64,000 nucleotides of DNA from Minisyncoccota bacterium (GCA_041648595.1 JBAZOQ010000003.1:1042-65041), one strand, 5' to 3'. Shown: positions 3,732-42,070, counted from the first letter of the stretch. Program-made: numbers and translations. Notes: generated from the letters alone by a model not told the origin.

Positions 3732-5408
3732 ATGGAAGAACAAATAGAAGAACATACACCTTATTTAGATAAATATAAACCTTTCTTTTGGATACTTGGA
3801 ATTGGCTTTTTATTATATCTTCCTACTTTATTTTTTAACTTTACATACTTAGATGACAACAACTTAATATTAGAAAATCAATATTTTCTATCAAATATAT
3901 CAAATATATTTCAATCTTTTTCAATTGATGTATTCCACATTTTCAATTCTTCAGCCTTTTATTATAGGCCTCTTTTAACTATTTCATTTATTTTTGATTA
4001 TCAAATAGGAGGAACAAATCCTTTTATGTATCATTTTAGTAATATACTTTTACATATTATCTCTTCTTATTTAATTTTTATATTTTTAACTAAATTAAAT
4101 TACAAAAAAACTTTATCATTTCTATTTTCAATTATTTTTCTAGTACACCCTGTTCTAACTCAAGCTGTTTCTTGGATCCCAGGGAGGAATGATTCTATGC
4201 TAGCAGTTTTTGCTCTTGCTACATTTATATTTTTTATAAAATACATAAAGGAAGAAAAAATAAGTAATCTTATTTGGAGTTTATTATTTTTTGGATTATC
4301 TATTTTTACAAAAGAATCAGGCATAGTAATATTTCCTATAATTCTTTTCTATTTATTATTTATTTTTAAAGAAAAGAAACTTTCATTAAATAAATTTTAT
4401 TTTTTCTTTGGATCAACCATTCTTCTCGGCATTTGGGCTATGTCTAGACATTTTGTACTTAAAGATTCACCTTCTCTTGGTATTGTAGAAATGTTTAAAT
4501 CTATATATTTTAATTTTCCTGCTGTCATACAATTTGCAGGAAAGATATTTTTACCATTTAATTTAAGTGTTCTACCAATTATAGAAGATACTACATTTTT
4601 ATATGGAATAATTTCCATAATTTTATTGACTATAATACTTTTTATTACAAAAACAAAACGTTGGGTTTATATTTTATTTGGAGTTATTTGGTTCTTTGCA
4701 TTTTTATTACCTTCTTTTATACGTCCAAATTCTACATTAGTGGCTGATTTTATAGAACACAGACTTTACGTACCAATAATTGGTATTTTTATATTATTAC
4801 TTGAAACTAATTTCATAAAAAATATTGATTTTAAGAAAAAAACTCATTTAATAATTATAAGCTCTGTACTTATTTTATTTAGTACAATAACGATCACATA
4901 TAGTTTTAATTTTAGTAATAGGTTAGCATTCTGGAATAATGCTGCAAAAAATTCCCCTCACTACCCTCTTGCTCATAGAAATCTAGGTGCTATGGAATAT
5001 TTGGACGGCAACATGGATAATGCAGAAAAAGAATTTAAAATTGCTTTGGAGCTAAACTCGCAAGAAGAAATGGCACACAATAATTTAGGCCTCATATATG
5101 CCAGTCAAAATAAATCAATAGAAGCTGAAGAAGAATATAAAAAAGAATTAGAAAATAATCCATATTATGATAACGCATATTTTAATTTAGGATTATTATA
5201 TTGGCAACAAAAAAAATACGATGAAGCAAAAATCAATTGGGAAAAAACTCTAGAAATTAACCCAAACTATACAGATGCTTTTAATGCACTAATGTTGTAT
5301 CACTATGAACAGAAAAATTATAAAGAAATGACTCTTTATGCAAATGAACTTTATAAAAGAGGAGTACAAATCCCAGCTGAAATAATAGAAATTATAAAAA
5401 CTCAGTAA
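3732..5408 (+). CDS. Multi-pass membrane protein with C-terminal TPR repeats (TMTC/PMT-like putative glycosyltransferase)
   Basis: N-terminal TM bundle with YLDDNN loop, C-terminal TPR-like repeats (NLG…Y…A…); start abuts previous stop. Confidence 0.5.
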   Translation: MEEQIEEHTPYLDKYKPFFWILGIGFLLYLPTLFFNFTYLDDNNLILENQYFLSNISNIFQSFSIDVFHIFNSSAFYYRPLLTISFIFDYQIGGTNPFMYHFSNILLHIISSYLIFIFLTKLNYKKTLSFLFSIIFLVHPVLTQAVSWIPGRNDSMLAVFALATFIFFIKYIKEEKISNLIWSLLFFGLSIFTKESGIVIFPIILFYLLFIFKEKKLSLNKFYFFFGSTILLGIWAMSRHFVLKDSPSLGIVEMFKSIYFNFPAVIQFAGKIFLPFNLSVLPIIEDTTFLYGIISIILLTIILFITKTKRWVYILFGVIWFFAFLLPSFIRPNSTLVADFIEHRLYVPIIGIFILLLETNFIKNIDFKKKTHLIIISSVLILFSTITITYSFNFSNRLAFWNNAAKNSPHYPLAHRNLGAMEYLDGNMDNAEKEFKIALELNSQEEMAHNNLGLIYASQNKSIEAEEEYKKELENNPYYDNAYFNLGLLYWQQKKYDEAKINWEKTLEINPNYTDAFNALMLYHYEQKNYKEMTLYANELYKRGVQIPAEIIEIIKTQ

Positions 5409-5420
5409 AAAATAAAAATT

Positions 5421-5497
5421 AGTGCTTTCTGCAACATACGCTACTTAAAGCTAGTATATTGTTTCCAGGTTGATATGCGAGTTGCAAGAAAGCAACT
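5421..5497. repeat. Repeat family F1 copy 1: conserved core CATACGCTACTTAAAG…GTTGATATGCGAG enclosed by 14-bp inverted repeats; A-run before, T-run after (bidirectional terminator-like)
   Basis: Direct sequence comparison with copies at 9861-9955 and 56612-56678; lies between convergent genes. Confidence 0.6.
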
Positions 5498-5502
5498 AAT
5501 TT

Positions 5503-9832: not shown

Positions 9833-9860
9833 ACATTAAATTATGATATATTTTTAAAAA

Positions 9861-9955
9861 AACACAAAGCAATACTTTCTTTGACATACGCTACTTAAAG
9901 ATACTTAATGACGTCAAGTTCGAGTGCGAGTCATAAGAAAGTATTGCTTTGTGTT
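9861..9955. repeat. Repeat family F1 copy 2: 21-bp perfect inverted repeat enclosing CATACGCTACTTAAAG…GTTCGAGTGCGAG; A-run/T-run flanks
   Basis: aacacaaagcaatactttct…agaaagtattgctttgtgtt stem read directly; lies between tRNA-Thr and prfB start. Confidence 0.6.
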
Positions 9956-9966
9956 TTTTTTGCATG

Positions 9967-10039
9967 AGCCGCTGGAAAGACTTGCACTTTCGACCCTCAA
10001 TTTACGAAATTGATGCTCTACTGCCTGAGCTACAGCGGC
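9967..10039 (-). tRNA. tRNA-Thr (anticodon CGU)
   Basis: Manual fold of the reverse complement: acceptor GCCGCTG/CAGCGGC, D arm GCTC-AGGCAGTA-GAGC, anticodon loop TTCGTAA, T arm GAAAG-TGCAAGT-CTTTC; no encoded CCA. Confidence 0.75.
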
Positions 10040-10046
10040 TTATTAA

Positions 10047-10083
10047 ATAAACACAAAATATTTTGTATTTATTCCTACTAGAG
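10047..10083. repeat. Repeat family F4 copy 1: palindromic AATAAACACAAAATATTTTGTATTTATT + CCTACTAGAG, adjacent to tRNA-Thr(CGU)
   Basis: Near-identical 38-nt sequence at 20041-20089 next to tRNA-Thr(GGU). Confidence 0.55.
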
Positions 10084-10349
10084 TCCCTCTTAAACAATAC
10101 TAAAACTTACTTTATCAAAAATTAAGCAAAAAAGCTAAATATAAATCTCGTTTAGGAGTGAATTATCATTATTGACCAGAATGGCACTATCTGTGTTCCT
10201 AGAGCTTTCTAGGACATCAAGAAGCACATTGGCAGCAGAATGTGCTGTATCCTCGGGTGCAGGCTCGGTGGGCTCTTGGGGGCTTGGTGGAATAGAGTTT
10301 TCTTCGGGAGTTGGGTTTTGGGTTGTGTTTTGGTTGTCGGGCATAAAAA

Positions 10350-10826
10350 TTACTTATCATTAATATATCTAACTTCATTTGAAATCATTTTTTTTGCTTT
10401 AAAATCTTCTCCGAAACTTTTAGGGAGAACGCGGATATTGTCTGCCGGATTTACCCAAACTATTTCAGCAATTTCGTGAGCGTGAGAACGAGCAAGTTTT
10501 TCAGTATTCAAATAATCTTTTCCATTTTTTATCTCAAAGAAAAATTCAATATATTGCTTGCCGTCCGTTTGTGTAAAATTGTTTATATAAAGCAGTTTAC
10601 CTATTTCTGGTTTTACTCCCAACTCTTCAATTATTTCCCGAGACAAACATTCTTTTATATCTTCTCCCCATTCTAAATGACCACCCGGAAGCGCAGCAAA
10701 GCTTGTATCATGAGGATGTCGCACGGCTAAAAGTTTTCCTTCGTGTAAAATAATCGCTCGAACTTTGATAATAATTTTCTTTTCGTTTTCCATAAGTTTA
10801 TTATAACACCTCATAACTCCTGCCAA
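10350..10826 (-). CDS. NUDIX hydrolase
   Basis: Nudix box GGHLEWGEDIKECLSREIIEELGV; close paralog of 40046..40492. Confidence 0.75.
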   Translation of the reverse strand: MAGVMRCYNKLMENEKKIIIKVRAIILHEGKLLAVRHPHDTSFAALPGGHLEWGEDIKECLSREIIEELGVKPEIGKLLYINNFTQTDGKQYIEFFFEIKNGKDYLNTEKLARSHAHEIAEIVWVNPADNIRVLPKSFGEDFKAKKMISNEVRYINDK

Positions 10827-10876
10827 GGTTCATGAGCTTCGTCATATCTAGCCTAGTTTCATCCATATTATTTATA

Positions 10877-11272
10877 TTAAAATAAATGTTTATACTGGGG
10901 ATAATTACTTTTTATAAATTTTTTCCACTCTCCAGTTTCTTTATTGCTACTAGATAAATCCGTCTTACCATATACTAACAAAATAGCCACAAACTTGTCT
11001 TTCTTGTGCCAAGCCACAATACACCTATTCCCCGACGTTTTTGCTGATTCTTTTGAATTTACTATTCTAAATTTAGTTTTTACTATTTTTATAATATCAG
11101 CATCAACCATTGTTTCTGCCCTATCGGTGAGCAAAAGATTATCAATACGTTCAAGTTCAGCGATAATAGCACGCAATGTAACATCCCAATATTTATTGTA
11201 TTTCTTCTCAAAACTTTTTATGAAGTGCTTTTCTGTAAAAGCTTCAATTCTTACAAAATAATTGCTCTCCAT
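10877..11272 (-). CDS. Hypothetical protein, 4 nt downstream of the XRE–Panacea gene (candidate toxin partner)
   Basis: 131 aa, no recognisable motif; position only. Confidence 0.3.
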   Translation of the reverse strand: MESNYFVRIEAFTEKHFIKSFEKKYNKYWDVTLRAIIAELERIDNLLLTDRAETMVDADIIKIVKTKFRIVNSKESAKTSGNRCIVAWHKKDKFVAILLVYGKTDLSSSNKETGEWKKFIKSNYPQYKHLF

Positions 11273-11275
11273 AAA

Positions 11276-11968
11276 TTAATATACTAAACCTGGATCCTCT
11301 TGAGTAATAAGTTCGTAAGGAATGAGTTCATTTTCTCTACATAAAAAATATGGCAATTGATTGTGTGTGAAGTTTACAATTTCTTGTGTTTTTTTACCTT
11401 TCCACTTTTCTGTGATTTTTTTCATTAAAGATTTTTCTTCGGTGGAAATTGTTTGAATTTTCTCATTCTTATTACTCTCCAATTCGCTTACCAAAAAACA
11501 TTCTTTACCATTTTCATTTTTATGATCAATATGAATTTTTCCATCAGACTCAAGCTCGTCTAGGGCACGAAAGAATACATCCGGAACAGGACCATAAGCA
11601 ATTTTTCTATATTGCATTCCGCTCATACTCTCTAAGTGGTCATAGAACCAAGCAAAATCTGTCAAGTAAAGTAATTTTGCAAGTTTTGTCTTGGGAATTT
11701 TTCCATCACTAGATACATTCATCCGGAGAAACGAGAGTATCATATGTTTATACTTTTGAAGATTGGAAATATTTCCTGACGATAATTCATCAACACCAAT
11801 TCCAAAAAGCGTGGCAAGTTTTTTCGCTTCATCCAAACTAAGTTCTTGCTTGCCAGCCTCAATAGAGCTATATGTTGGTCGCGAAACCCCTATCGCTTTT
11901 GCAATTTGCTCTTGACTTAATCCGTTATTTTTTCTTAACTCTTTAATTTTTTCTATATACTTAATCAT
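11276..11968 (-). CDS. XRE-family HTH regulator fused to a Panacea/DUF4065-like C-terminal domain (ORF track gives 12070; likely true start is M at 11968)
   Basis: HTH: LSQEQIAKAIGVSRPTYSSIEAG; C-terminal KLAKLLYLTDFAWFYD…YGPVPDVF resembles DUF4065; 40-bp perfect palindrome centred on the 11968 ATG. Confidence 0.55.
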   Translation of the reverse strand: MIKYIEKIKELRKNNGLSQEQIAKAIGVSRPTYSSIEAGKQELSLDEAKKLATLFGIGVDELSSGNISNLQKYKHMILSFLRMNVSSDGKIPKTKLAKLLYLTDFAWFYDHLESMSGMQYRKIAYGPVPDVFFRALDELESDGKIHIDHKNENGKECFLVSELESNKNEKIQTISTEEKSLMKKITEKWKGKKTQEIVNFTHNQLPYFLCRENELIPYELITQEDPGLVY

Positions 11969-11980
11969 ATGATTAAGTAT
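11941..11980. promoter_or_regulatory. 40-bp perfect palindrome ttttctatatacttaatcat|atgattaagtatatagaaaa overlapping the start codon of the XRE regulator (candidate autoregulatory operator)
   Basis: Read directly; the second half is the exact reverse complement of the first. Confidence 0.5.
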
Positions 11981-12054
11981 ATAGAAAACTTGTAAAAAAG
12001 TCAAGCAAAAACTGTTGATAACTTGACATATAAAAAGATATAATGCCAACTTTT

Positions 12055-12147
12055 TTACAACTCTTGCCAAAGTTCATGAGCTTCGTCAACATCTAGTCCA
12101 GTTTCGTCCATAAGTTCTTGAAGTTCCTCCGCTTCGTCTTTACTCAT
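12055..12147 (-). CDS. Small acidic ORF (30 aa, MSKDEAEELQELMDETGLDVDEAHELWQEL) with strong SD AGGAGGAT
   Basis: Hand translation; the sequence encoding its C-terminal half (repeat F5, 12065-12111) has a degenerate, frameshifted copy at 10821-10865. Confidence 0.4.
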   Translation of the reverse strand: MSKDEAEELQELMDETGLDVDEAHELWQEL

Positions 12148-12215
12148 ATCCTCCTCTGAAGTTTATCCGTCCTCTGGCGGGCTTTTTCGAATACTTCGTC
12201 GTCCATAATAAAATA

Positions 12216-12515
12216 TTATGTAAATAGTTTTCCCGATGTATTCGCTAATGTTACTTTTGCTAACTGACATATTTCATCAATGGATGCGCCATTTTCTTTT
12301 AGCCCATAAAAATGATTTTCACCAAGCAGTATATACTCCCAAACCCTATCCATTCTGTCCTCGGAATTTAATTTGTTTATTCTTTGAACCCAATCAAGTG
12401 TTGCCAGTTGTTTTTGTTTAACATTTGGATCATGTAAATCTTTATCAGACTTTGTTTCAATGATATACATTTTTTCTGAAGTTTTCACAATAAAGTCGGG
12501 GCTATATAAAGACAA
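12216..12515 (-). pseudogene. Stand-alone PD-(D/E)xK nuclease-domain fragment homologous to the C-terminus of the adjacent Res subunit (likely remnant)
   Basis: YSPDFIVKTSEKMYIIETK… aligns with Res C-terminus FYPDYLVKLTGGRLGLFEVK…; only 99 aa, no helicase part. Confidence 0.4.
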
Positions 12516-12608
12516 AAACCCATCTGTCCTTATATAAACTAAATGAGCAAAATTATGATAATACTCATTGACTTATACCAACCGCTTGGTATACTACTTA
12601 AAGTATCG

Positions 12609-12647
12609 AAAAAGGGGCGTCGACCGTTAGGACGATGGCCCTTTTTC
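12609..12647. terminator. GC-rich hairpin flanked by A-run and T-run (bidirectional rho-independent terminator) after res
   Basis: aaaaaggggcgtcg…cgatggccctttttc. Confidence 0.55.
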
Positions 12648-12711
12648 ATTTGGTAATTCATCTTTATTTTCCAATACTTCTCCATTGTCTTTTTCAACAA
12701 AAACATTAAAA

Positions 12712-15063
12712 TTATAACTTCAAAACTTCCCATTCATCCCAATTGCCACGCTCGCATTTTCCCCAATCAAAAATCTTGTTATCATTAATTAGCCATATGT
12801 GATTTTTTTGTATAACAATACCGCCAAATAATTTTTTATTTTTTTGACCTGTCATATATTTTTGCAAAGCTTCAGCTTTGGCTTTGGTGTAGGTTTTTCC
12901 ATCACGATCGCCAGCATCCTTAACTTCAAACAAACCAAGACGACCACCAGTCAATTTAACTAAGTAGTCGGGATAAAAAGTATAAATGCTGTTTTGATAT
13001 TCATACTTAACGCCAAAATAATCCTGCTTGTTTTCACCATTTTTCCACCACCAATCAATTTTTGAAGCATTGGTGTTTAAAAAAGTTTCAAACTCTCTTT
13101 CTGGATTAGACCGATCAGTATTTAAATAGCACGGCTCGTAAGCATAATTTTTAACCTTAATTATTTCGTCGGTATATTCATTATAGAATTGCTCGTTTTG
13201 AAGTTCAAAAGAATATTTTTGCTCACTTTCTTCAACACGCTTGCGGACTTCATTTTCTTTGACTATTACATATTCGCTAATAGCTTTTGACAGTATATGT
13301 TCAAATACAATTCTGTTTTTATTATTCAAAAATATTTTTTGGGTTAATAGAGACGGGTCAGGCCAATTTTCAGCATCAAGATTATTATTAAACCAAAGAT
13401 AAATAGCCGTTTTAACAGCTGGAACAGAACGCTTAACATTTTTAAACGATCCTAAATTATTTTTAATAACTTGTTCAAATAAAATCTGTAATTCATCAGT
13501 CGCGACATTTAATCTAGCCCAAGCATCGGGATTTACTTTTCCCTCGATCTGATCGAAACTTTTTACATCAAGAGATGTGTCAGCAATTAATTCTTGTTGG
13601 TACTTTTTAATATCAAGATTAATGTCTTTATTTTCAACTGCTTTTATATTTTCTTTAAGTTTTCCATTTTTAGTAATGCCAAAATACGCATTCGCTGTCT
13701 TTTCAAATACTGGCACAAAACTTGAAGTAATGTCGCCATAATCAGCACGAGCTTTATAGTATGATTCAATTTTAATAGGTTTGTATTTCTTAATGCGAGT
13801 TGCTTTGAGATGTTTAATAATATTTGGATTGTATTCTTCTTTTTTAACTGAAATTGACAGTAAGTTGGTATAAATATAACCCTTATTTAAAATTTCATTA
13901 TCATAATGTTTTTGTTCTGGCATTCTCAAAATACGACCAACAGTTTGTATTTCAAAAACAATGTTGTGTGTCTCTCGGAATTTAACCAAAATGTGAGCCC
14001 GAGGACAATCCCAGCCGGTATCAATGGCTTGTTTGAAAATTAAAAATTCAATTTCATTGTTCGGTTCGGAAATCCAATCAATCAGCTCTGATTTTTGTTC
14101 GGCTAACCAAACAGCAAGTTTGCCATTGCCATGTCCATCTTTTCGTTCAGTGATATTTTTACTAGCTAAAAACTTCTTAATCGCTTCAATTTTTTGCTCA
14201 CCGGCTTCGGCTGTTGGAATTTGCACCAAAACTAGAGGATTTATATTTGAACCTTCTTTTTTAAACGCTTTCAAAAGCTCAAGTCGCTTTTGAAAGGATG
14301 CTTCTAACACAGCTGTCTCTGAATCTTCTTCTAATTTTGCAATTTTTTCTATATCTTCATTAATTATCAATTCTTTTTTTATCATTCCTTCCTCAATTAC
14401 ATCTTTAGAATTTACTTTCACAAAACCTGCTTTGGTTTCAAACAACTGAGCCACAGTCGGTATTAATTTTGGCGTAGCGCTCATTTCCATAACAAGATCA
14501 GCCGAAATAATCTGTCGTAATTCTTGAGCTCTTTCGCTAGTAGCATTTGTGTGACTTTCATCAATAATCAAAATTATTTTTCTCTGTTGTTCTCTGGTTT
14601 TTTCCAATACATCACGGAAATTTAATTTTTCGCCATCTTTCATTAAAAGCACTTTCCATTCGCCAGTCTTACTGTCTTTGCTTCGCAATTTTTCCCAATT
14701 AGCCACCACAACTTCATTTTTAACAATTCTCTCTCGTCCACCTGAAAATTCTTCCTCAGCTAAAGTAACCCGAGGAAATCCAGCAAAAACTTTTTCCAAA
14801 GAGTGCTTGCTCTGCAAATGCAGTTCGCCTTTGCCAATACTCATCCACACGAAACAAATATCGTCATTGGGAAGTTCTTTGATAAGTCCTTCAATAAATT
14901 TAGCAGTCATGATAGTTTTACCCGAACCGGTAGGAGCTTGAAAAACCAAGGCTTCGCCCGGTCCGTCAAAATTTAACAACTTAACGGCAGTTTCAATCAA
15001 CTGATCAACGGCTTTTTCTTGATATGGTTTAAGATTAATATTCATAAATTTGTTTATAGACAT
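12712..15063 (-). CDS. res: Type III restriction enzyme Res subunit (SF2 helicase + C-terminal PD-(D/E)xK endonuclease)
   Basis: Walker A QAPTGSGKT, DEAH-like IIDESH, C-terminal PD…EVK; overlaps mod by 29 nt. Confidence 0.85.
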   Translation of the reverse strand: MSINKFMNINLKPYQEKAVDQLIETAVKLLNFDGPGEALVFQAPTGSGKTIMTAKFIEGLIKELPNDDICFVWMSIGKGELHLQSKHSLEKVFAGFPRVTLAEEEFSGGRERIVKNEVVVANWEKLRSKDSKTGEWKVLLMKDGEKLNFRDVLEKTREQQRKIILIIDESHTNATSERAQELRQIISADLVMEMSATPKLIPTVAQLFETKAGFVKVNSKDVIEEGMIKKELIINEDIEKIAKLEEDSETAVLEASFQKRLELLKAFKKEGSNINPLVLVQIPTAEAGEQKIEAIKKFLASKNITERKDGHGNGKLAVWLAEQKSELIDWISEPNNEIEFLIFKQAIDTGWDCPRAHILVKFRETHNIVFEIQTVGRILRMPEQKHYDNEILNKGYIYTNLLSISVKKEEYNPNIIKHLKATRIKKYKPIKIESYYKARADYGDITSSFVPVFEKTANAYFGITKNGKLKENIKAVENKDINLDIKKYQQELIADTSLDVKSFDQIEGKVNPDAWARLNVATDELQILFEQVIKNNLGSFKNVKRSVPAVKTAIYLWFNNNLDAENWPDPSLLTQKIFLNNKNRIVFEHILSKAISEYVIVKENEVRKRVEESEQKYSFELQNEQFYNEYTDEIIKVKNYAYEPCYLNTDRSNPEREFETFLNTNASKIDWWWKNGENKQDYFGVKYEYQNSIYTFYPDYLVKLTGGRLGLFEVKDAGDRDGKTYTKAKAEALQKYMTGQKNKKLFGGIVIQKNHIWLINDNKIFDWGKCERGNWDEWEVLKL

Positions 15064-16651
15064 CTAATATTTTTTGCGGTATAGGTTCTAAAGAAACATT
15101 TTTCCAGCCAATAAAATCGCTTTTATCCAAACCAAGCGGGTCAAGAGTAAAACAATAAAAGATTTTCTCGCCGTCAATTTTATTTAACTCTTTTTTAAGT
15201 TCAGATAAAGTTTTATGTTCTAAGGCATAATATACTGCCAAAGTTTTGTCGCCTTGTTGGAAAATACGATAATCATTTGTTTTTTTAATCTCGTCAAAAA
15301 TGCCTTCTCGCAAGCAAAGCATTTCTGTACATTCTTTTGTTATGCGAATTTTGAAATCGTCTTTATTGGAAGCGTTTTTAATGAATTTAGTTTTGAAATA
15401 TTTTAAATTAGATTTTATTTTTTTTAAACGAGGATATAAATATCCATCAATTATATTCCCGTTTCCATTTTCTTTGTTATAAGTACACAAAATAAATTGT
15501 CTATTTCCTTTATCGTTTTCGTTCACTAATGAAGTAGCAACACCAGTTGTTCCAGAACCGGCAAAAAAATCTAAAATAATCCCGTTTTTATTTGGATGTA
15601 ATTTAAGTATTCTTTTTATTAAAGATAAAGGTTTTTGTGATAAAAAATTTACATATTCATCAGAACTACCTTGTAATGGTTTTATTTCTTCATCTATCCA
15701 TATATCTGACACTAACACCCCTTCTCTATCAGACAAATATTGTTTCTTTGAAAATCGTCCATTTTTTGAAGTAAAAATTAAACCTTCCTTGTCCCAATTT
15801 TCTAATTTTTGAAGTGAATAGAGCCATGGCGCTAATCTACCTTTAAATTTAACCCTTTTTCTATTTTCTGTTCTTTGTGACCCTTGTGCTTCTAACTCTA
15901 TTAATCTAAATTTTCCTTTGTCATCACTATAGCTATAAGGTTTTAACGATTTTTCATCAAAAGAACGATAAATATTATTTATTTTTAATTGGTTAATATT
16001 TTTTGCAAAAAACAAAACATATTCGTGTTGGTTCCCAAGTTCTGACGCTTGGGCTTTAGGGCTATTCGTTTTTTTCCATATTATTATATTGACAAAATTG
16101 TTCTCTCCAAAAATTTCATTCATTAATAATTTTAATTGAGCCAATTCAATAGAATCAATAGAAACTAAAATTATTCCATTTTCATTTAATAAATTTTTTG
16201 CTAGTTTTAATCGCTTACTCATAAATGAAAGCCACTTACTATGACGATAGGCATCCTCTTTGTCTACATAATTATCATCATAAACAAAGTCTTTATTCCC
16301 AGTATTATATGGCGGATCAATGTAAATAACATCAATCTTGCCTTGGTGGGTAAAATTTAAAACTGACAATGCATGATAATTATCACCCTCAATTAAAATA
16401 TTTACCGGTTTATCATTTTTGTCTTTTATTTCTTTACCTTTAATTTCTTTCAAAACTGGCAAGGCATTTTCGGCATCTTTTTCAAATTGTTCTTTGACTT
16501 TTTCCTCATCCCAAATAAGCCCATACTTTTTACGAGATTCGAGTTTTTCAACAATTTTAAGAAGTTCTTCTTTGTTAAGTTTTGAATAATCCTTGCTCAT
16601 TAAAATTTTGTTTATGGCTAGAGGTACTTGTATTATTTTGAATAATATCAC
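15035..16651 (-). CDS. mod: Type III restriction–modification Mod subunit (N6-adenine DNA methyltransferase)
   Basis: DPPY motif (IYIDPPYNTG), SAM motif FFAGSGTTG; mod-before-res order. Confidence 0.85.
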   Translation of the reverse strand: MILFKIIQVPLAINKILMSKDYSKLNKEELLKIVEKLESRKKYGLIWDEEKVKEQFEKDAENALPVLKEIKGKEIKDKNDKPVNILIEGDNYHALSVLNFTHQGKIDVIYIDPPYNTGNKDFVYDDNYVDKEDAYRHSKWLSFMSKRLKLAKNLLNENGIILVSIDSIELAQLKLLMNEIFGENNFVNIIIWKKTNSPKAQASELGNQHEYVLFFAKNINQLKINNIYRSFDEKSLKPYSYSDDKGKFRLIELEAQGSQRTENRKRVKFKGRLAPWLYSLQKLENWDKEGLIFTSKNGRFSKKQYLSDREGVLVSDIWIDEEIKPLQGSSDEYVNFLSQKPLSLIKRILKLHPNKNGIILDFFAGSGTTGVATSLVNENDKGNRQFILCTYNKENGNGNIIDGYLYPRLKKIKSNLKYFKTKFIKNASNKDDFKIRITKECTEMLCLREGIFDEIKKTNDYRIFQQGDKTLAVYYALEHKTLSELKKELNKIDGEKIFYCFTLDPLGLDKSDFIGWKNVSLEPIPQKILDVYKQIYEY

Positions 16652-17114
16652 AATTCCAACCTCTTGCCTGACAAAAAGTTATAAGCGGGATTTCTTTTAC
16701 ATCTGCGATTATTTTAAAAGTTTTTCCCCTCTCTTCTAAATCAAGGGCGGATGATGCAACTGCCAATTGGTCTCCTTGTAAATTACTATTGGAAAAAGTT
16801 TGAGTAAACTGTGAAATTGCATTTGTACTATTATAACGAGTTATATCATTATATAAATTATCTTTTTGAAAACCTGTAGTTTTTGTGAATGGATTATCAA
16901 TATTGTACTCACAACCTGTGTGAGGATTCATTAATGGCGAAAACTCAACAAAACCAGTTATTGACGGCTCATCAAAAGAATAACATTCTGCTTTCGCAGT
17001 ATATCCAAGAGACTCATTATGTTCTGGAATATAAACTTTCCAAGCTTGAGGTGAGCCTAGTGTTGTACATGCTGTAAAATTTTTATCTATCTGTGCCTGT
17101 ATCATACCAACCAT
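16575..17114 (-). CDS. Hypothetical protein (start uncertain; ORF overlaps mod start by 77 nt)
   Basis: 179-aa ORF, no motif recognised. Confidence 0.3.
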   Translation of the reverse strand: MVGMIQAQIDKNFTACTTLGSPQAWKVYIPEHNESLGYTAKAECYSFDEPSITGFVEFSPLMNPHTGCEYNIDNPFTKTTGFQKDNLYNDITRYNSTNAISQFTQTFSNSNLQGDQLAVASSALDLEERGKTFKIIADVKEIPLITFCQARGWNCDIIQNNTSTSSHKQNFNEQGLFKT

Positions 17115-17149
17115 CTTAGCACATTTTTCTTTAAAAACAAAGAGTGAAA

Positions 17150-17560
17150 TTATTTCTTTTGTGGTTTTTCTGGTTGCTTTCGACTGGTAATAAATGCTGT
17201 CGCAAGCATAGCAAGACCGGCAAGTGAAAGCCCCCCACCGAAAATAGGAAACCCTCGCAAGGCAGTGTAAACTCCGGCAATAATTACAGCCATAACAATA
17301 ATAAAACCAAAAATCACACCAAGTAAAGATTTAGTATTATCTGTTTTAATGACGGACTTTTCAATGCTCTGACGGTGTTTTACCTGTCCATCCCATTCTT
17401 CAAAAATTATCTTTGCAGAACCAGGATATATTTTTTCATACCGCTCCATAATTTCAGGAGGCGGAACAGGACCAGAGAACATTTCCCCTTTTTGTATAAC
17501 AATTTGATGATTATTATTTAAATTACCCTGCGATTGAGGTTTGTTTTGATTTGTGTTCAT
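17150..17560 (-). CDS. Hypothetical membrane protein (C-terminal 2 TM)
   Basis: Gln/Asn-rich N-terminus, two C-terminal hydrophobic helices. Confidence 0.35.
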   Translation of the reverse strand: MNTNQNKPQSQGNLNNNHQIVIQKGEMFSGPVPPPEIMERYEKIYPGSAKIIFEEWDGQVKHRQSIEKSVIKTDNTKSLLGVIFGFIIVMAVIIAGVYTALRGFPIFGGGLSLAGLAMLATAFITSRKQPEKPQKK

Positions 17561-17765
17561 AATTTTTCATTGCATTCCATAAATCATTACCTATCACTCT
17601 CCAATCCTCATGAAGAGAATTAATATCAGCTTCTTTCTCATTTAAATCATAATTATACCTAGACTGATTTGGCGATAAATCAACAATAGAAGCTATCCCA
17701 TCCACAAAAGATGGTTCTTTCTTGAAGAGTCTAAAAGTACCTTCATTCATGATAATTGTTCCCAT
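17523..17765 (-). CDS. Hypothetical small protein (80 aa) immediately downstream of the ClpP-fold protease
   Basis: ORF only. Confidence 0.25.
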   Translation of the reverse strand: MGTIIMNEGTFRLFKKEPSFVDGIASIVDLSPNQSRYNYDLNEKEADINSLHEDWRVIGNDLWNAMKNYEHKSKQTSIAG

Positions 17766-17791
17766 ATCTTTATATTAACATTATTGATAAT

Positions 17792-18811
17792 TTATTTCCA
17801 TCCCTGCCCAACTACTCGCATCGCGACTTGATCTTGCGGAATTTGAACGCCATTTTGTTGTGGAACCATAACTTGCTGACGACGAAATTCTATTTTTAAA
17901 TTAAATGCTTTTGAAAGTACATCACTTTCTACAAACGCCACTTTATAGTCTTTGATATTTTGGCTTGCATTAGCTCCAAGTTCGTTTTCAGGATTCCAAA
18001 TAGTATTTTGCAATTCCATTTCTTTTGCATATTCTGAGTATAAATCAGACATCAAATTTGAAAGTTCTAAATCGGCATCAACAACTGATTTAACACCAAG
18101 CTCTTCTTTTGCTTCTTTCCTGCCAATAAAATACATATGAGAATAAAGTTTTTCAGTAAAAAATTCTACAATTTTTTCAATTTCTTCTTCTTTTATTTTA
18201 TCTTTATGGCTCTTTAATAATCTTTTTGCCAATAACCGGATAAGATTATGAGTACGATTTACATTTCCCAAAGCAAGCGGATGAATTTGCGGATTGGCTT
18301 CCACAAATTTATTAAATATTTTAGTTAAGTCCTCATCGCTTTTTATCCCGAATTTATTTTTTGCTAAATCAAAATATGCGATAACATCTTCAACAGAAAT
18401 TGGAATTTTATTTTGCGGGTTAGTTGGGTCTGCTGGATTAAAAACATTTGCAGTTGAAGGGTCAATCGGAGAAATTTCCGACAAATCGCTCATTACAATT
18501 TCATCGGCACCCAAGGCGATCATGGTTCCAGCGCTGTGTGCCTTGTAAGGCACAAGTACAGAAAAAGTATCACAATATTCACGAATCATTGAAACCAAAC
18601 GCCATGGAACCATTGTGTCGCCCCCTGCGGTATAAAGAAAAAGGTCAATTTTAGTAGTTTTTCCAATTTTACGAAGTTGCTCGCTAATAATCGGAATTAT
18701 ATCCATAGCTACACGAGCATTAACTGGTCCTTGTCTGTCGCTTGTTATATAAGTAATGACTTTTGACCCTCTTTTTTCTTCAATTTTTTTGATTAGTTCT
18801 ATTTTTGACAT
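17792..18811 (-). CDS. ClpP-fold serine protease of the SDH (serine dehydrogenase proteinase)/S49-like family
   Basis: …LFLYTAGGDTMVPWRLVSMIR…AHSAGTMIALGADEIVMS… resembles ClpP/SppA crotonase-fold active-site region; 339 aa. Confidence 0.55.
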   Translation of the reverse strand: MSKIELIKKIEEKRGSKVITYITSDRQGPVNARVAMDIIPIISEQLRKIGKTTKIDLFLYTAGGDTMVPWRLVSMIREYCDTFSVLVPYKAHSAGTMIALGADEIVMSDLSEISPIDPSTANVFNPADPTNPQNKIPISVEDVIAYFDLAKNKFGIKSDEDLTKIFNKFVEANPQIHPLALGNVNRTHNLIRLLAKRLLKSHKDKIKEEEIEKIVEFFTEKLYSHMYFIGRKEAKEELGVKSVVDADLELSNLMSDLYSEYAKEMELQNTIWNPENELGANASQNIKDYKVAFVESDVLSKAFNLKIEFRRQQVMVPQQNGVQIPQDQVAMRVVGQGWK

Positions 18812-18851
18812 ATTTTAATTATAGCATATTTTTGATAAAAATTCATCTTTT

Positions 18852-18978
18852 TTATTTCAAAAGTTCACTACTAGAAATTCCCAATGCTTTAGAAATTTTT
18901 TCCAAAGTCGAAAGAGTTGGATTCATGCAACCATTTTCAATATTACTTATATAAAATCCTGTTTCTATTTTGTTCATA
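18852..18978 (-). CDS. Small XRE-like HTH ORF (41 aa) starting 1 nt after the fic stop
   Basis: Hand translation MNKIETGFYISNIENGCMNPTLSTLEKISKALGISSSELLK; below the ORF-track size cutoff. Confidence 0.35.
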
Positions 18979-19866
18979 TTATTTCTTTTTGTTTTCTACT
19001 CCAATTTTCCATACATCTTTTTCTAAAAAAGCTTCGATAGTTTGACGTTTTGCTTTATTTATTAAATTCGAATGAGAAAAACTATACTCTTTGGCATAGT
19101 CAGACAAATTTATAATTGTTTTATTTTCTAAATATGCAAGGCGTCTATGGTAACTGTTTGTAAGTGCCTTTGCGACAATAGTTTCCATAATTTTTGTACC
19201 GCCCTTCGTTTGAAATTCTTTAAAGGCATCGTAATACATTGCCCTATCAATAAATTTAATGTTTATGGATACATAGCCACTACGCATTAAAAGATAATTG
19301 TTCAAGACACGTCCAATACGACCATTCCCGTCACAAAATGGATGCACATATTCAAAACCTAAATGAAATTTAGCAATCCTCTTTATTATAGAATCTCTAG
19401 TATTTGAATTATATTCTGTCAGAACTTTTTGTAAACGATCAGTAACTTCTAATGGATTCGGTGCAACATAATCACCTACCCGCACCCATTCATTTTCTTT
19501 TCTAAATCTTCCGGCTATATCATCACGAATATTTAAAATAAGCATTTTATGCAGAGACAAAATAATATCAAAATTTAATTCACTTTCTTTTGACTTGTTT
19601 TCTATATATGCCACCACACGAGCAAGATTTTTAGCTTCAAAAATTTCTCTCTCTGATATATACCTGTCAAGTTCTATTTGAAGTAAAATCTTGTCAGTTT
19701 CTTCAAGTGAAAGAGTGCTATTTTCGATAGCATTTGAGTTGTACACCTGATCAGAAACTTCCGCTTCTGTAAGTATCTTCAAAAGAGACTCTTTACCAAC
19801 GATAGCCTTGTAGTATCTTTCCCGTAAATTTTGTATATTTTTGTATATTTTAAACGTATTTGCCAT
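18979..19866 (-). CDS. Fic/Doc family protein
   Basis: Canonical Fic motif HPFCDGNGRIGR. Confidence 0.85.
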   Translation of the reverse strand: MANTFKIYKNIQNLRERYYKAIVGKESLLKILTEAEVSDQVYNSNAIENSTLSLEETDKILLQIELDRYISEREIFEAKNLARVVAYIENKSKESELNFDIILSLHKMLILNIRDDIAGRFRKENEWVRVGDYVAPNPLEVTDRLQKVLTEYNSNTRDSIIKRIAKFHLGFEYVHPFCDGNGRIGRVLNNYLLMRSGYVSINIKFIDRAMYYDAFKEFQTKGGTKIMETIVAKALTNSYHRRLAYLENKTIINLSDYAKEYSFSHSNLINKAKRQTIEAFLEKDVWKIGVENKKK

Positions 19867-20040
19867 ATTTCTATTATACTTGTCTTAACGATAAAGTCAA
19901 CCAATATCGTTAAAATATAAGAAAAAACATTAGTTTTAACGATTTTGACCTACAATCCCAAAAAAAACTCTTCCCGCTGGCAGAATTTAAAATCTCGCCA
20001 AAAGACATAACTAAAATAGGTTCTAGCTGATTTTAATAAG

Positions 20041-20089
20041 GACTCTAGTGGAATAAATACAAAATATTTTGTGTTTATTCCTACTAGAG
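20041..20089. repeat. Repeat family F4 copy 2 (extended hairpin ctctagtgg-AATAAATACAAAATATTTTGTGTTTATT-cctactagag) at the 3' side of tRNA-Thr(GGU)
   Basis: Direct comparison with 10047-10083. Confidence 0.55.
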
Positions 20090-20160
20090 CCGTTAATTGG
20101 ATTTGCACCAATGACCTTCGTCTTACCAAGACGATGCTCTACTACCTGAGCTATAACGGC
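20088..20160 (-). tRNA. tRNA-Thr (anticodon GGU)
   Basis: Manual fold: acceptor GCCGTTA/TAACGGC, D arm GCTC-AGGTAGTA-GAGC, anticodon loop TTGGTAA, T arm ATTGG-TGCAAAT-CCAAT. Confidence 0.75.
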
Positions 20161-23509: not shown

Positions 23510-24584
23510 TGTACAGTTAACCATATGGGGTGACACTTAAGGTAGAATTGGGGTGACAAAGGTTAATCATCTTTAATCATCTTAATTTAAAAGGCGAAAG
23601 CTTAAAAACATTATATGGCAAACAAGAATCAAGGTGCATCGTATCCAAGCAAAGTAAGAGCAAAATGGTATTTCTTGGTAGAGAAAGCAGGTAAAAGCAT
23701 CAATGAAGTTTGTAGAATGTATATGATATCAAGAAAAACATATTACAAATGGAGAAAGAAAGATTTAGGAGATAGAATATATATTCCTAGGAAAGAACAT
23801 CCACAAACTAAAATTAAAGGAGAAGTAAAGATATTCATTTGCGAAGAAAAATTAAGAATTAATTATGGTCCAAGAAAAATGAAATTACTTGTTAAAAGAA
23901 GATTTGATTTAGATATTTCAACTACTATCATTTACAAACTCTACAAAAAGAAGGGATTAATCAGAAGACCACAAAAGAAACTTCCTTGGTATAAACCAAT
24001 TAAAGAAGCTGTAATACCTAAAGTTCCAGGTGATGTTGTGCAAATGGATGCTAAATATATCTGGGAGGACAATACACGCAAATATCAAAGAACATTCATT
24101 GATATTTATACAGGATTTCAATTTGCAACAGTAACTAGCACCATGACAGCTGAAGATACAATTAACGCGTTTCTTGAAGCAGAAGTTAATTTCCAATTTA
24201 AAATTCTTGGAATCCAAACAGATAATGGAAGTGAGAATCGAGGAGAATTTCATCAATATATTGGCAGGTGTGGAATTGCTCATTACTTCATACCAAAATC
24301 TTCACCACAGTGGGATGGAGCAGTAGAGAGAGCACACGGAGTAATTGATCAAGAGTATTATCTTAATCCGACACGAACATGGAAAAGTTTAGAAGAATAT
24401 TTACACTTTTATAATTATGAAAGAATCCATTTAGGAAAATATTTAAATGGTATGATACCGGTCGAGAAACTTAATTATTATTTATCCACAGTGTCACCCT
24501 TGAAGGTTAACTAAACATTAAAGATGATTAACCTTTGTCACCCCAATTCTACCTTAAGTGTCACCCCATATGGTTAACTGTACA
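23510..24584 (+). mobile_element. Insertion sequence (IS481-like), ~1.07 kb, with 58-bp perfect (≈67-bp near-perfect) terminal inverted repeats
   Basis: IRL 23511-23568 is the exact reverse complement of IRR 24526-24583, each with two GGGGTGACA subrepeats; single DDE transposase inside. Confidence 0.8.
23615..24514 (+). CDS. DDE transposase (rve/integrase core with N-terminal HTH; IS481-family-like)
   Basis: D (VQMD), D (TDNGSEN) and E (ERAHG) catalytic-triad context. Confidence 0.8.
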   Translation: MANKNQGASYPSKVRAKWYFLVEKAGKSINEVCRMYMISRKTYYKWRKKDLGDRIYIPRKEHPQTKIKGEVKIFICEEKLRINYGPRKMKLLVKRRFDLDISTTIIYKLYKKKGLIRRPQKKLPWYKPIKEAVIPKVPGDVVQMDAKYIWEDNTRKYQRTFIDIYTGFQFATVTSTMTAEDTINAFLEAEVNFQFKILGIQTDNGSENRGEFHQYIGRCGIAHYFIPKSSPQWDGAVERAHGVIDQEYYLNPTRTWKSLEEYLHFYNYERIHLGKYLNGMIPVEKLNYYLSTVSPLKVN

Positions 24585-27408: not shown

Positions 27409-27497
27409 TCTACCAGGTAGACCCGAAGGTCCTATGTCAGTTTCCCGACATAACGCGAACAGCGACCCTGATAAAGGGATTACTACGCTGTTCGCGA
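27409..27497 (+). ncRNA. Candidate structured RNA: four consecutive hairpins in a 660-bp ORF-free divergent intergenic region (identity unknown, strand uncertain)
   Basis: ctaccaggtag; gaccCGAAggtc; atgtcagtttcccgacat; gcgaacagcg-[ccctgataaaggg…]-cgctgttcgc (10-bp perfect stem with nested hairpin). Confidence 0.3.
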
Positions 27498-27856
27498 TTT
27501 TACTAGCGCCATGCAAATATAAATATTTGTTTAGGCTCTTATTAAGTTTTACTCACTTTACAATTATACCATCTAGCTATTAAAACAAACAATGGCCTCA
27601 AAAGCTGTAATTTTTTTGAGAAATTTTTTTAGCCTTTGGTTTTTAGAATCCAAGATTTAACCAAAAAACACAAATGGGTACGTTTCTCTAGTACTACTAC
27701 CATATTCAATTTCCAAATAGACAACCCCCCTATCTCACTATTTTTAATACTCAATTATAAATATTTAAAAACTATTTAAGTGAAGCAAATTATTAATAAC
27801 AAAAATGCTTCACAACATGTTGGTCGGCATGAATTATTAATTAATCATTTAACGTT

Positions 27857-40045: not shown

Positions 40046-40492
40046 TTAATTGTGTATATCTATATATCTAACTTTATCAGAGATAATATTTCCTTTTTTA
40101 AAATCTTCCCATAAACCATTGGGTTTGATGGGCGTTGTCCCAGCAGGCTCCAACCAACACACTTCTGCAATTTCATGTGCATGTGTAGTTTTAAGATGCC
40201 CGATATTTAAATAATCTTTTCCATTAGTAATTTCAAAGAAAAATTCAACAGACTGTCTTATCTCTCCATCCATAAAATTATTTATATAAAGCAATCTCCC
40301 AATTTCAGGAATAACCCCAAGCTCTTCAACCATTTCACGCCTTAAACATTCTTTTATATCTTCTTTCCACTCAACATGCCCACCAGGCAAAGCACAAAAA
40401 CTCGTGTCATGTGGATGCTTCACACCCAAAAGCTTACCTTCATAAATAATAATACCCCTTGTTCTAACAACAAATTTTTTATCTTTTTCCAT
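40046..40492 (-). CDS. NUDIX hydrolase (paralog of 10350..10826)
   Basis: GGHVEWKEDIKECLRREMVEELGV; near-collinear similarity to the island NUDIX. Confidence 0.75.
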   Translation of the reverse strand: MEKDKKFVVRTRGIIIYEGKLLGVKHPHDTSFCALPGGHVEWKEDIKECLRREMVEELGVIPEIGRLLYINNFMDGEIRQSVEFFFEITNGKDYLNIGHLKTTHAHEIAEVCWLEPAGTTPIKPNGLWEDFKKGNIISDKVRYIDIHN

Positions 40493-40496
40493 AAAA

Positions 40497-42044
40497 TTAT
40501 TTCTTTTCTTTAGGAGAAACCTCGTCGTCCCCTCCTTCTAATAATTCTAACCCTTTCACTGGACCAAAAGCGTTATTACCTAATTTCCCTTGTATTGATC
40601 CTACAATATTTGCAGTTCCAATAAATATTTTTTCCACTTGCGCATCTCTAACTTTCCAAGATTTTTCAAAAGCTACCCTTTCCTTTGTAATTTGATCTTT
40701 CATTTCTTTATAAGTTTCAACCATTGATTCAACTTGCTGTCTAAATTCATGACTAGTTACATATCCATATAATGTTTCAGCTAAAGTTCCTTGTTTTTCA
40801 GCTTGTGCATTAACTAAAGCAACCTCCAACAGCTGTCTCCTTAATACATGTGAGACAGAGATAGCTAAGGATGGTTTACAAATCCAAACTCCATCCTTAT
40901 TTCCGAAACCTGAAACAGCTTCATCTGGTAATACCATACTTACAATAACTGGAATATGTGCAGCCTCAGCTCTTAAATTTACTTTCAATTTAGGAATCCA
41001 ATCCTTGCCCCAATTTTGCACCCTTTTAGATTCCCATAGTATCACTCCACAAACCTTTCCCGAATTTGATCTTACTTTTTGTCTTACATCTGCCCCCTTA
41101 ACTCCTTTTCCGACTGGTTCGATAATATCTTGCGGAAATGCCTCCTTTAAACTAGCCTCTAGGTCCAATTCTTGCACCTCTCCTTGAAGTTGTTGCGATC
41201 CTTGTTCTGCTTTCCTTTTTGCATCATTTAACTGAGTAATCAAGTCAGCCATTTTCTTTTCACTTTCAAGTTCACGGAAATGATATTCGTCACCTATACG
41301 CTTACTTACTTCATTTTCAATTTTACCCTTTTCTTCTGAAATTTTCCTAGCGACTTCAAGCTCTTGAGTTTTCATTTTTTCATCCAACTCTCTTTCTTTA
41401 TTTAATAGAGATAACTCACGTTTCTGAGCCTCCTTTAGCTTTGCATTTTTTTCTGCAACTTGTTCTTCTAATATTTTTTTTTCTGCTTCTTTCTCTTTTT
41501 CAACATCTTCTAATTTTTTCTGTAATTTTATTGTATCAGTTCCATTTTGTTTAATGGCACGAGTAAAAGCCTCTTCTTCTATACCCTTACGCTCAGCATC
41601 AATTATTTTAGCCTTTTCCAATTCAAAACCCTTTCTCTCTTCTTCAAGTTTTTTTCTTTCCGCGCGAGCCTCAAGAGATTCAGCAGTTGCTTTTTCTAAT
41701 TTCTTATCCTTCTCTTTCATCTGATCCTCTAAAAGTTTAATTTCAGCAGCAGTTTGTTTTTCAGCGGCCACTTGTGCATCTTTCCATAATGCCCTTTTTT
41801 CTATTACAATTTTTTCCGCTACCTTCTTATTTATTTCACTTTGGGCATTTTTCTGCGATTCCTCCAGTTTTGCTTTTTCTTCTGCTATTTCTTTTTTCTC
41901 TTTTGCCATTTCAGCTTCTTTAAGCTTATTCTCTTCACTAATTTCTTTTTTTAGGTTTTCTTCAATTTGATGTGTCAATACATCATCAATTGATATTGCT
42001 GCTTTGCAGTTGGGGCATATAATATTTTTTGTGTCGTTTTTCAT
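40497..42044 (-). CDS. Zn-ribbon + long coiled-coil protein (DUF2130-like architecture)
   Basis: N-terminal CPNCKAAISIDD, ~250 aa E/K-rich coiled coil, conserved C-terminal globular domain. Confidence 0.45.
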   Translation of the reverse strand: MKNDTKNIICPNCKAAISIDDVLTHQIEENLKKEISEENKLKEAEMAKEKKEIAEEKAKLEESQKNAQSEINKKVAEKIVIEKRALWKDAQVAAEKQTAAEIKLLEDQMKEKDKKLEKATAESLEARAERKKLEEERKGFELEKAKIIDAERKGIEEEAFTRAIKQNGTDTIKLQKKLEDVEKEKEAEKKILEEQVAEKNAKLKEAQKRELSLLNKERELDEKMKTQELEVARKISEEKGKIENEVSKRIGDEYHFRELESEKKMADLITQLNDAKRKAEQGSQQLQGEVQELDLEASLKEAFPQDIIEPVGKGVKGADVRQKVRSNSGKVCGVILWESKRVQNWGKDWIPKLKVNLRAEAAHIPVIVSMVLPDEAVSGFGNKDGVWICKPSLAISVSHVLRRQLLEVALVNAQAEKQGTLAETLYGYVTSHEFRQQVESMVETYKEMKDQITKERVAFEKSWKVRDAQVEKIFIGTANIVGSIQGKLGNNAFGPVKGLELLEGGDDEVSPKEKK

Positions 42045-42070
42045 ATTTTTTTATTTTATAAATAATTTTT

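Follow-up and report, generated by a model that had tools for sequence, protein, structure and literature searches.

A recombinase-less mosaic defence island with matching border hairpins in a tRNA-Thr insertion hotspot of Paceibacteria

Introduction

Bacteria of the candidate phyla radiation (CPR, or Patescibacteria) have tiny genomes, and how they acquire and exchange immunity genes is little understood. Integrative islands that target tRNA genes are delimited by attL and attR sites, and the cis-mobilizable elements (CIMEs) of Streptococcus keep such att sites without an integrase. Here we analyse a 10-kb island that lies between two tRNA-Thr genes in a 64,000-nt stretch of DNA (hereafter, the window) from a Minisyncoccota bacterium (GCA_041648595.1 JBAZOQ010000003.1:1042-65041). 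We show that the gap between these two genes is a lineage-wide, recurrent insertion hotspot in Paceibacteria and that the island filling it in this genome is compositionally foreign and is a mosaic of independently portable modules, many of them defence-related. We consider it probable that this island was acquired horizontally, without a recombinase of its own, and entered by one reciprocal crossover between two hairpins.

Taken as a whole, the locus resembles a recombinase-less derivative of a tRNA-associated integrative island. As in such islands and in CIMEs, the insertion lies directly 3' of a tRNA gene and combines flanking repeats, foreign composition and accessory cargo, and, as in a CIME, the att-like sites occur without an integrase. 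It differs in that the repeat is a palindromic spacer hairpin that starts right after the tRNA, leaving the tRNA 3' end outside it, and in that neither an integrase nor an integrase remnant is present, which sets the island apart from classical integrative islands; no cognate element with the same att site was found.

A second close parallel is provided by the core defence hotspots of Pseudomonas aeruginosa, cDHS1 and cDHS2, where 29-47% of sites have no detectable mobility gene (PMC10250203). As in those hotspots, the position of the site described here is fixed by conserved core flanks (there including tRNA or tmRNA genes), content and size vary widely among genomes, and the fill is a mosaic of short defence cassettes in which a mobility gene is often missing. 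Unlike those hotspots, the site is a gap inside a tandem tRNA-Thr pair of ultra-small CPR genomes, it varies between species and genera rather than between strains of one species, most relatives fill it with genes other than defence genes, and the fill in the window has matching hairpins at both ends.

Results

The island is bounded downstream by tRNA-Thr(CGU) at 9966-10039 (minus strand; Rfam 61.6 bits) and upstream by tRNA-Thr(GGU) at 20087-20160 (minus strand; Rfam 65.4 bits), both of which were also called by ARAGORN. Between them lie 13 tightly packed open reading frames (ORFs), all on the minus strand, and the intergenic DNA sums to less than 0.7 kb. Profile searches with Pfam, PADLOC and NCBIfam, which were also used to check gene content, detected no recombinase domain in any of the 13 ORFs, and the intergenic DNA is too short to hide a recombinase gene. 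The nearest recombinases in the window are the rve-type transposase of an insertion sequence (IS; 23615-24514) and a large serine recombinase (51926-53551). A first-pass annotation of this DNA had described a defence-type block of about 10 kb bounded by two tRNA-Thr genes, listed its genes as all minus-strand, and reported no integrase between the tRNAs; the tRNA predictions and the three profile collections bear out each of these statements. Both junctions are spanned, at 99.55-100% identity, by independent assemblies from three other samples (L001, L002, L101 and L102), so the arrangement is real and not an assembly artefact. All three sampled populations carry the island, as does every strain reached by exact-protein look-ups of the flanking genes. 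By megablast the island matched no plasmid or phage, and a search of 9.7-20.4 kb against Rfam at E<=1 returned the tRNAs only, plus sub-threshold chance matches on the hairpins.

The PrfB protein places the window in a Paceibacteria/Nomurabacteria-like group of the CPR, where the closest species representatives are 75-76% identical. Among 5.8 billion protein clusters the nearest PrfB reaches 82% identity; the species it comes from offers no empty site, the tRNAs being absent upstream of its prfB. We scanned 80 related prfB loci for tRNA genes and found both tRNA-Thr genes on one strand in 40. Across relatives the landmark is kept as tRNA-Met/Asp, a gap, tRNA-Thr(GGU), tRNA-Thr(CGU) and prfB-ftsE-ftsX-pyrG. 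In 26 of the 40 genomes the Thr-Thr spacer measures 5-284 nt (median about 48) and is often a hairpin, with sequences that are unrelated among genomes; in the other 14 it measures 464-5858 nt and holds cargo that is unrelated both among genomes and to the island in the window. That the tRNAs stand in tandem with a short spacer in most of these genomes, and are separated by unrelated cargo in the rest, identifies the gap as an insertion hotspot.

What fills the gap differs in kind as well as in sequence. The 14 filled gaps encode Smr proteins, ice-binding-like proteins with sortase, PemK/MazF, PIF1 helicase, GIY-YIG and radical SAM proteins, ferric-reductase-like proteins, PurL with LysRS, and fragments of large serine recombinases. 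Some of this cargo is defence-like or selfish (MazF, PIF1, GIY-YIG, HNH-like), and in other relatives it consists of surface or metabolic genes. The fill in the window comprises a Type III restriction-modification (RM) system, a SoFic-like Fic protein, a Panacea toxin-antitoxin (TA) pair and PADLOC candidates, and, at 10 kb, is the largest Thr-Thr fill seen. The first-pass annotation had suggested asking whether the two tRNA-Thr genes are adjacent elsewhere; the 26 short spacers supply the answer and confirm that the block is an insertion relative to relatives. Its framing as a single island proved too narrow, since the hotspot is clade-wide and the island is one compartment of a non-syntenic zone of about 43 kb (10.0-53.5 kb) that extends to tRNA-Asp.

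The short spacers include a further feature of their own. In four relatives (L028, L031, L073 and L069) the Thr-Thr spacer is 150-280 nt long, GC-rich and highly structured, with the common motifs GGGGTCGGGGAAA...CCCCGTGGAGGAA...CCGTGGGTTTCC, and may be an unannotated small RNA that is co-transcribed with the tRNAs.

Composition sets the island genes apart from the syntenic genes of the window. Mean GC content at third codon positions (GC3) is 0.244 in island genes against 0.169 in syntenic genes (Mann-Whitney p=3e-5), tetranucleotide distance shows a modest increase, and overall GC differs slightly (0.323 vs 0.29-0.31 in the flanks). The only island homologues in the 80 prfB loci of relatives are those of the NUDIX gene, plus one weak 24% match to Mod in L019. 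One such NUDIX homologue, 77% identical at the amino acid level, lies between tRNA-Asp and tRNA-Thr(GGU) in a relative (L038), and a paralogue with about 72% DNA identity occurs in the window itself at 40046-40525. Database relatives of the island toxin and protease reach 90-94% identity in other contexts, above the 82% of the nearest PrfB, which points to exchange between lineages. These results bear on two points raised in the first-pass annotation, which had proposed comparing the composition of the block with that of its flanks and had named syntenic core genes in relatives as the finding that would overturn an island: the composition is shifted, and syntenic homologues are absent from the relatives' loci. 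We also considered whether the block might simply consist of native, syntenic core genes, with the border repeat arising by chance. The genes are co-oriented with their neighbours and overall GC is only slightly raised, as this explanation would expect, but the tRNAs are adjacent in most relatives, GC3 is shifted, and the border repeat has zero expectation in shuffled sequence; we reject it as having almost no chance of being correct.

Each end of the island is marked by a hairpin. A 38-nt repeat, AATAAAYACAAAATATTTTGTRTTTATTCCTACTAGAG, is present at 10046-10083 and 20052-20089 with 36 of 38 positions identical; only these two copies exist in the 64 kb even when 3 mismatches are allowed, and none is expected from 100 shuffles. 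The attR-like copy on the CGU side (10046-10083, no strand assigned) consists of a 28-nt palindromic core plus CCTACTAGAG, lies 6 nt upstream of tRNA-Thr(CGU) and is left with a 13-bp AU core stem (dG -12.1 kcal/mol); in its flank, a weaker and inverted similarity to the other junction continues out to about 10094-10115. The attL-like copy on the GGU side is a full hairpin at 20041-20091 (likewise unstranded) with a 23-bp stem (RNA dG -25.5 kcal/mol, z -8.2), the base of which takes in the last nucleotides of tRNA-Thr(GGU). The other two tRNAs of the window, and the ends of other transcription units, have different hairpins. All copies of the border hairpins are identical among the strains sampled, with no sign of flipping between them.

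The detailed structure of the two copies suggests how they may have arisen. The 28-nt core is an 11-6-11 palindrome, and the core of the CGU-side copy is the exact reverse complement of that of the GGU-side copy. Read on the minus strand, the GGU-side core carries C7/A22, a mismatch in the stem, and the CGU-side core carries T7/G22. Both copies share the same 5' arm, CTCTAGTAGG (10 nt, with a bulged A), and their island-internal flanks are mutually complementary; when core halves are swapped between the copies, two perfect palindromes result. From this pattern we infer that the border hairpins are att-like scars of a Campbell-type insertion. The original attB would have been a 44-nt palindromic spacer hairpin between the tRNAs with a perfect core containing C:G (CTCTAGTAGG-AATAAACACAAAATATTTTGTGTTTATT-TAATAA), and attP a longer hairpin on a circular incoming element with a perfect core containing T:A (GGGACTCTAGTAGG-AATAAATACAAAATATTTTGTATTTATT-CCACTAGAGTCCTT...). 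The two imperfect hairpins seen today would be the attL and attR produced by one reciprocal exchange that fell between core positions 7 and 22, centrally within the 38-nt identity block. The recombinase would have acted in trans or have since been lost, the element would now be fixed in the sampled population, and the hairpins may today terminate transcription or insulate the island operons from the tRNAs. The model predicts the junction of the empty site (...CAATTAACGGCTCTAGTAGGAATAAACACAAAATATTTTGTGTTTATTTAATAAGCCGCTGTAGC...) and that of the circle (...GTTTAAGAGGGACTCTAGTAGGAATAAATACAAAATATTTTGTATTTATTCCACTAGAGTCCTTATTAAAATCAGC...).

We favour this crossover because it accounts for C7/A22, T7/G22, the shared 5' arm and the complementary flanks without any extra mutation; a model of inverted copies would have to restore the bulged A by the accident of one indel. 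Folding is much better for the rebuilt sites than for the extant ones: attP reaches -24.2 kcal/mol (z -11.5), its stem extending into both island-internal flanks, and attB -14.2 kcal/mol, against -14.9 and -7.2 for the extant copies. At 44 nt, the rebuilt spacer has the size typical of relatives' spacers, several of which are hairpins too.

A number of observations weigh against the crossover, or at least against parts of it. The two hairpins align in either orientation, directly over 38 nt with 2 mismatches and inversely over 41-49 nt with 1 indel, and the best local alignment of the two junctions is the inverted one (score 88 vs 66 for direct). Because the core is palindromic, its orientation is ambiguous, and directness is not demonstrable from the sequence alone. 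The first-pass annotation had spoken of att-like direct repeats; a repeat is indeed present at both borders, and its copies look like reciprocal chimeras of the sort one crossover would leave, but the sequence by itself fits either orientation. The predicted perfect palindromes with the right flanks are absent from JGI metagenome contigs and IMG/VR, and the sampled strains, the relatives and the window yielded no empty-site strain, no circular junction and no cognate recombinase. Terminal repeats of at least 13 nt are lacking from all 14 other filled gaps, so repeats are not general at the hotspot. Finally, the same genome has a dispersed family of long hairpins, described below, which makes it plausible that the border hairpins belong to a terminator family or one resembling repetitive extragenic palindromes (REP). 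The core itself, AAAYACAAAATATTTTGTRTTT, has 16 matches in JGI metagenome contigs and 1 in IMG/VR, every one an unrelated perfect palindrome set in other flanks and none of them belonging to this organism, and a fuzzy search for the core or the outer arm in the fetched loci recovered same-species contigs only.

The inverted alignment raises the question of whether the island is a foldback or transposon-like element with terminal inverted repeats (TIRs) of about 41-70 bp (10046-10115 vs 20079-20012), moved by a transposase in trans. The inverted match is both longer, at 49 nt, and higher-scoring than the direct one, and the exact reverse complementarity of the two cores is what TIRs would give. 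Extending the alignment past 41 nt gains only marginal score in AT-rich DNA, though, and the bulged A sits in the same arm of both copies, contradicting a simple inversion. In addition, the 10-nt CTCTAGTAGG pairs with the interior of the putative right TIR although it lies outside it, which would have a chance of about 4^-9 if this arm were not part of the site. The outer flanks show no target-site duplication (TTATTA vs CCTACT), and there is no transposase inside the island. We therefore consider an element of this type very improbable, and a transposon with TIRs was rejected on the same grounds: the inverted match is there, and the target-site duplication and internal transposase are not.

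The dispersed family of hairpins is species-specific and intergenic, with three copies in the 64 kb (5407-5500, 9856-9960 and 56592-56690). Its members share a conserved loop of about 60 nt (CATACGCTACTTAAAG..TAATGAC.TCAAGTT.GA.TGCGAGT) on covarying A/T-rich stems; the family corresponds to no Rfam family and is absent from the loci of the 80 relatives. The copy at 9856-9960, between tRNA-Thr(CGU) and prfB, is terminator-like (dG -45.5 kcal/mol, z -9.5). That one of these hairpins directly follows tRNA-Thr(CGU) lends support to a different account, in which the gap content was gained or swapped by homologous recombination in the conserved flanks (the tRNA genes and prfB), as has been proposed for recombinase-less hotspots, and the border hairpins are ordinary members of a terminator or REP-like family that merely end two transcription units. 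Both border hairpins do lie at transcription-unit ends, and the missing recombinase and the repeat-free ends of the other 14 filled gaps would also be expected. Against this account, the only two repeat copies in the 64 kb sit exactly at the borders of a non-syntenic block, other unit ends and the other two tRNAs carry different hairpins, and the border copies are 95-98% identical, whereas members of the long-hairpin family average 78%. Nor does the account explain why the C·A / T·G pattern is reciprocal and the island-internal flanks are complementary. In our judgement homologous recombination is an unlikely source of the island, albeit one to be taken seriously.

The shape of the core brings to mind a further group of elements. 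Modules flanked by pdif sites, and the integrative mobile elements exploiting Xer (IMEX), depend on Xer recombinases, and they resemble the island in having two 28-bp 11-6-11 sites in opposite arm order around a recombinase-less TA and RM module. The 28-nt palindromes could on this basis be tyrosine-recombinase core sites at which a host enzyme captured the module, whether as an Xer/dif-like IMEX, a pdif-type module or by recombination of a folded hairpin, for which integron attC sites and CTX phage offer parallels. In support of this, the crossover proposed above would fall in or near the central region, and the rebuilt attP forms a long hairpin in which one base is extrahelical. The differences are considerable: the island is neither plasmid-borne nor at the replication terminus, its site has no clear similarity to known dif sites, and the 28-mer is absent both from the 80 relatives' loci and from 241 million metagenome contigs, although Xer sites are normally conserved. 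Moreover, no tyrosine recombinase (and no Xer gene) occurs in the 64-kb window, the central AATATT is itself palindromic, and there are two sites only and no array. We regard capture at such a core site as very improbable. The idea of a terminus dif was discarded in its own right, the cumulative GC skew having no turning point at 10-20 kb, and an Xer-dependent IMEX or pdif module was likewise set aside, since the 11-6-11 shape is present without a skew switch, a conserved 28-mer or an Xer gene in the window.

Independently of how it entered, the island is a mosaic of modules that are portable on their own: a SoFic-like Fic protein, an SDH-type Clp-fold protease with small partners, a Type III RM system, the stump of a second res gene, a Panacea/RelE-HigB pair and a NUDIX gene. 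From the CGU side, the genes (all minus strand) begin with a 69-aa proline-rich ORF (10135-10344) that has no family match and is also called as a gene in the independent assembly L001, and a NUDIX hydrolase (10350-10826; Pfam, and PADLOC candidate PDC-S07). These are followed by the 131-aa putative toxin (10877-11272) and, ending 3 nt from it, the gene for its 230-aa antitoxin or repressor partner (11276-11968), which joins an XRE helix-turn-helix (HTH) domain to SocA_Panacea (Pfam 1e-13).

This last pair belongs to the Panacea (PanA) TA family, for which background is available (PMC8832971). The 131-aa gene has more than 500 homologues of 65-92% identity across many CPR lineages, and in the five other contexts inspected it always lies directly downstream of the 230-aa XRE-Panacea gene, as it does here. 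The neighbourhoods of the pair vary and abound in RM, Abi or NERD genes. The AlphaFold2 model of the 131-aa protein (pLDDT 86) has RelE as its top Foldseek match in the PDB (1wmi_A, E 2e-4, TM 0.79), with HigB2 and YoeB among the further top matches, and profile searches gave weak HigB-2 matches and no Pfam model. The model thus shows a predicted RelE/HigB fold, and the protein is most likely the ribosome-dependent mRNase toxin of the Panacea TA pair. Scans of IMG/VR for the toxin family and for the protease returned no relatives. The arrangement agrees with described Panacea systems (PMC8832971, PMC10440598) in that an antitoxin with XRE-HTH and SocA_Panacea domains adjoins a small toxin in a two-gene operon set in a defence neighbourhood. 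It differs in that the partner belongs to a 131-aa family that is very highly conserved in the CPR and lacks a Pfam model, and in that its RelE/HigB assignment was made by structure prediction alone, toxicity and neutralisation being predicted. The start of the XRE-Panacea gene and its promoter are overlapped by an imperfect palindrome of 84 nt (11928-12011; about 84% self-complementary), probably the autoregulatory operator.

Beyond the TA pair lie an acidic 30-aa mini-ORF read from the sequence (12055-12147), the coding status of which is uncertain, and a 99-aa remnant (12216-12515) left from the C-terminal nuclease region of another Type III Res gene, which matches positions 786-849 of the 871 in the PADLOC REase_III profile and has a weak TnsA-like match in Pfam. 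The intact RM system consists of a 783-aa restriction subunit, Res (12712-15063; Pfam ResIII 9e-19, PADLOC REase_III 5e-20), and the methyltransferase Mod (15035-16651; Pfam N6_N4_Mtase 2e-42, PADLOC MTase_III 2e-77); the two genes overlap by 29 nt, and adjacent genes for an N6/N4 methylase and Res identify the system as Type III. In a strain that is otherwise 99.55% identical, the central target-recognition region of Mod (about 15410-16197, ~790 nt) is replaced by a divergent allele (window ~15410-16197 compared with L001:1-936 and L101:13671-13832), which suggests switching of restriction specificity within the population. Together with the stumps (the 99-aa Res C-terminus and a 41-aa HTH fragment), this replacement fits continuing turnover of the island.

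The remaining genes are a 179-aa protein without a family match (16575-17114), a 136-aa DUF2335 membrane protein (17150-17560; Pfam 6e-10), an 80-aa protein, also without a family match (17523-17765), a 339-aa SDH-type Clp-fold serine protease identified by profile matches (17792-18811), the truncated 41-aa HTH_3 fragment (18852-18977; positions 25-55 of the 55 in the Pfam profile) and a Fic protein (18979-19866). The protease is a portable single-gene module, with homologues of 75-94% identity in unrelated contexts of other CPR genomes. Fic carries the active-site motif HPFCDGNGRIGR and an N-terminal SNAIEN inhibitory motif, matches the SoFic and PDC-S04 profiles, and is preceded by a strong promoter-like site at 19900-19873.

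The rest of the 43-kb zone lies between tRNA-Thr(GGU) and tRNA-Asp, a gap that spans 33 kb here (20161-53511) and some 0.3-9 kb in relatives. Its genes lack syntenic counterparts in the relatives' prfB loci, only three of them having weak matches there at non-syntenic positions, and their mean GC3 is 0.222 (core, 0.169). An IS element at 23510-24584, also present in the ERZ27249422 strain, holds the rve-family transposase mentioned above between perfect 68-nt inverted repeats (23510-23577 and 24517-24584). A match to LOOT RNA (RF03000; 67.9 bits, gathering threshold 46.4) lies at 27419-27537 (minus strand) among small unannotated genes, and the zone also contains sugar-modification genes, two more NUDIX genes and an APH gene. 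At 40497-46723 (minus strand), a gene for a DUF2130 protein adjoins one for a 1550-aa SF1 helicase that also carries an MTES_1575-type nuclease and a Top1 zinc ribbon, and the two may form a further defence module; the third NUDIX gene (40046-40492) lies immediately downstream of them.

The far end of the zone is taken up by a small module on the plus strand (46746-53551) with higher GC3 (0.31) and reversed skew, which is probably an integrated element. It encodes paralogous 96- and 97-aa proteins, a Pol-beta-like fragment, an AAA_25 protein (49450-51477) and the large serine recombinase (541 aa, plus strand), the 3' end of which overlaps tRNA-Asp. No partial duplicate of tRNA-Asp delimiting this element was found. 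Large serine recombinases occur near tRNA genes in several relatives, and their fragments lie in the Thr-Thr gaps of L011 and, judged from the sequence alone, L022; these enzymes are the usual integrators in this clade. No link was detected between the large serine recombinase of the window and the border hairpins.

Discussion

Apart from the predictions about its entry, the island is an ordinary genomic island and a clear example of a well-known kind. Its entry may be of a less familiar type. One speculative extension of the favoured crossover is that the island is a recombinase-less cassette mobilised in trans via its hairpin att site by a host tyrosine (Xer-like) recombinase, perhaps with attP folded from single-stranded DNA as in integron attC sites or CTX phage. 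We give this version a rather low probability. To our knowledge, mobility by capture at a hairpin att site has not been described for CPR bacteria, and, if true, it would amount to a lox/dif-style capture system for defence genes in these organisms. Since the empty site and the circular junction are predicted exactly, both can be searched for, and finding them would settle how the island moved.

The portable modules have a significance of their own. A RelE/HigB fold, as predicted here, would assign a likely activity, that of ribosome-dependent mRNases, to a toxin family that is widespread in the CPR and has no Pfam model.

Altogether, the conserved tRNA cluster that precedes prfB (Met/Asp ... 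Thr-Thr) serves Paceibacteria as a landing site for incoming DNA, filled with different cargo in different genomes and, in the window, with a mosaic of defence modules. The finding partly answers whether core defence hotspots exist outside model Proteobacteria, a question raised by the work that described them (PMC10250203).

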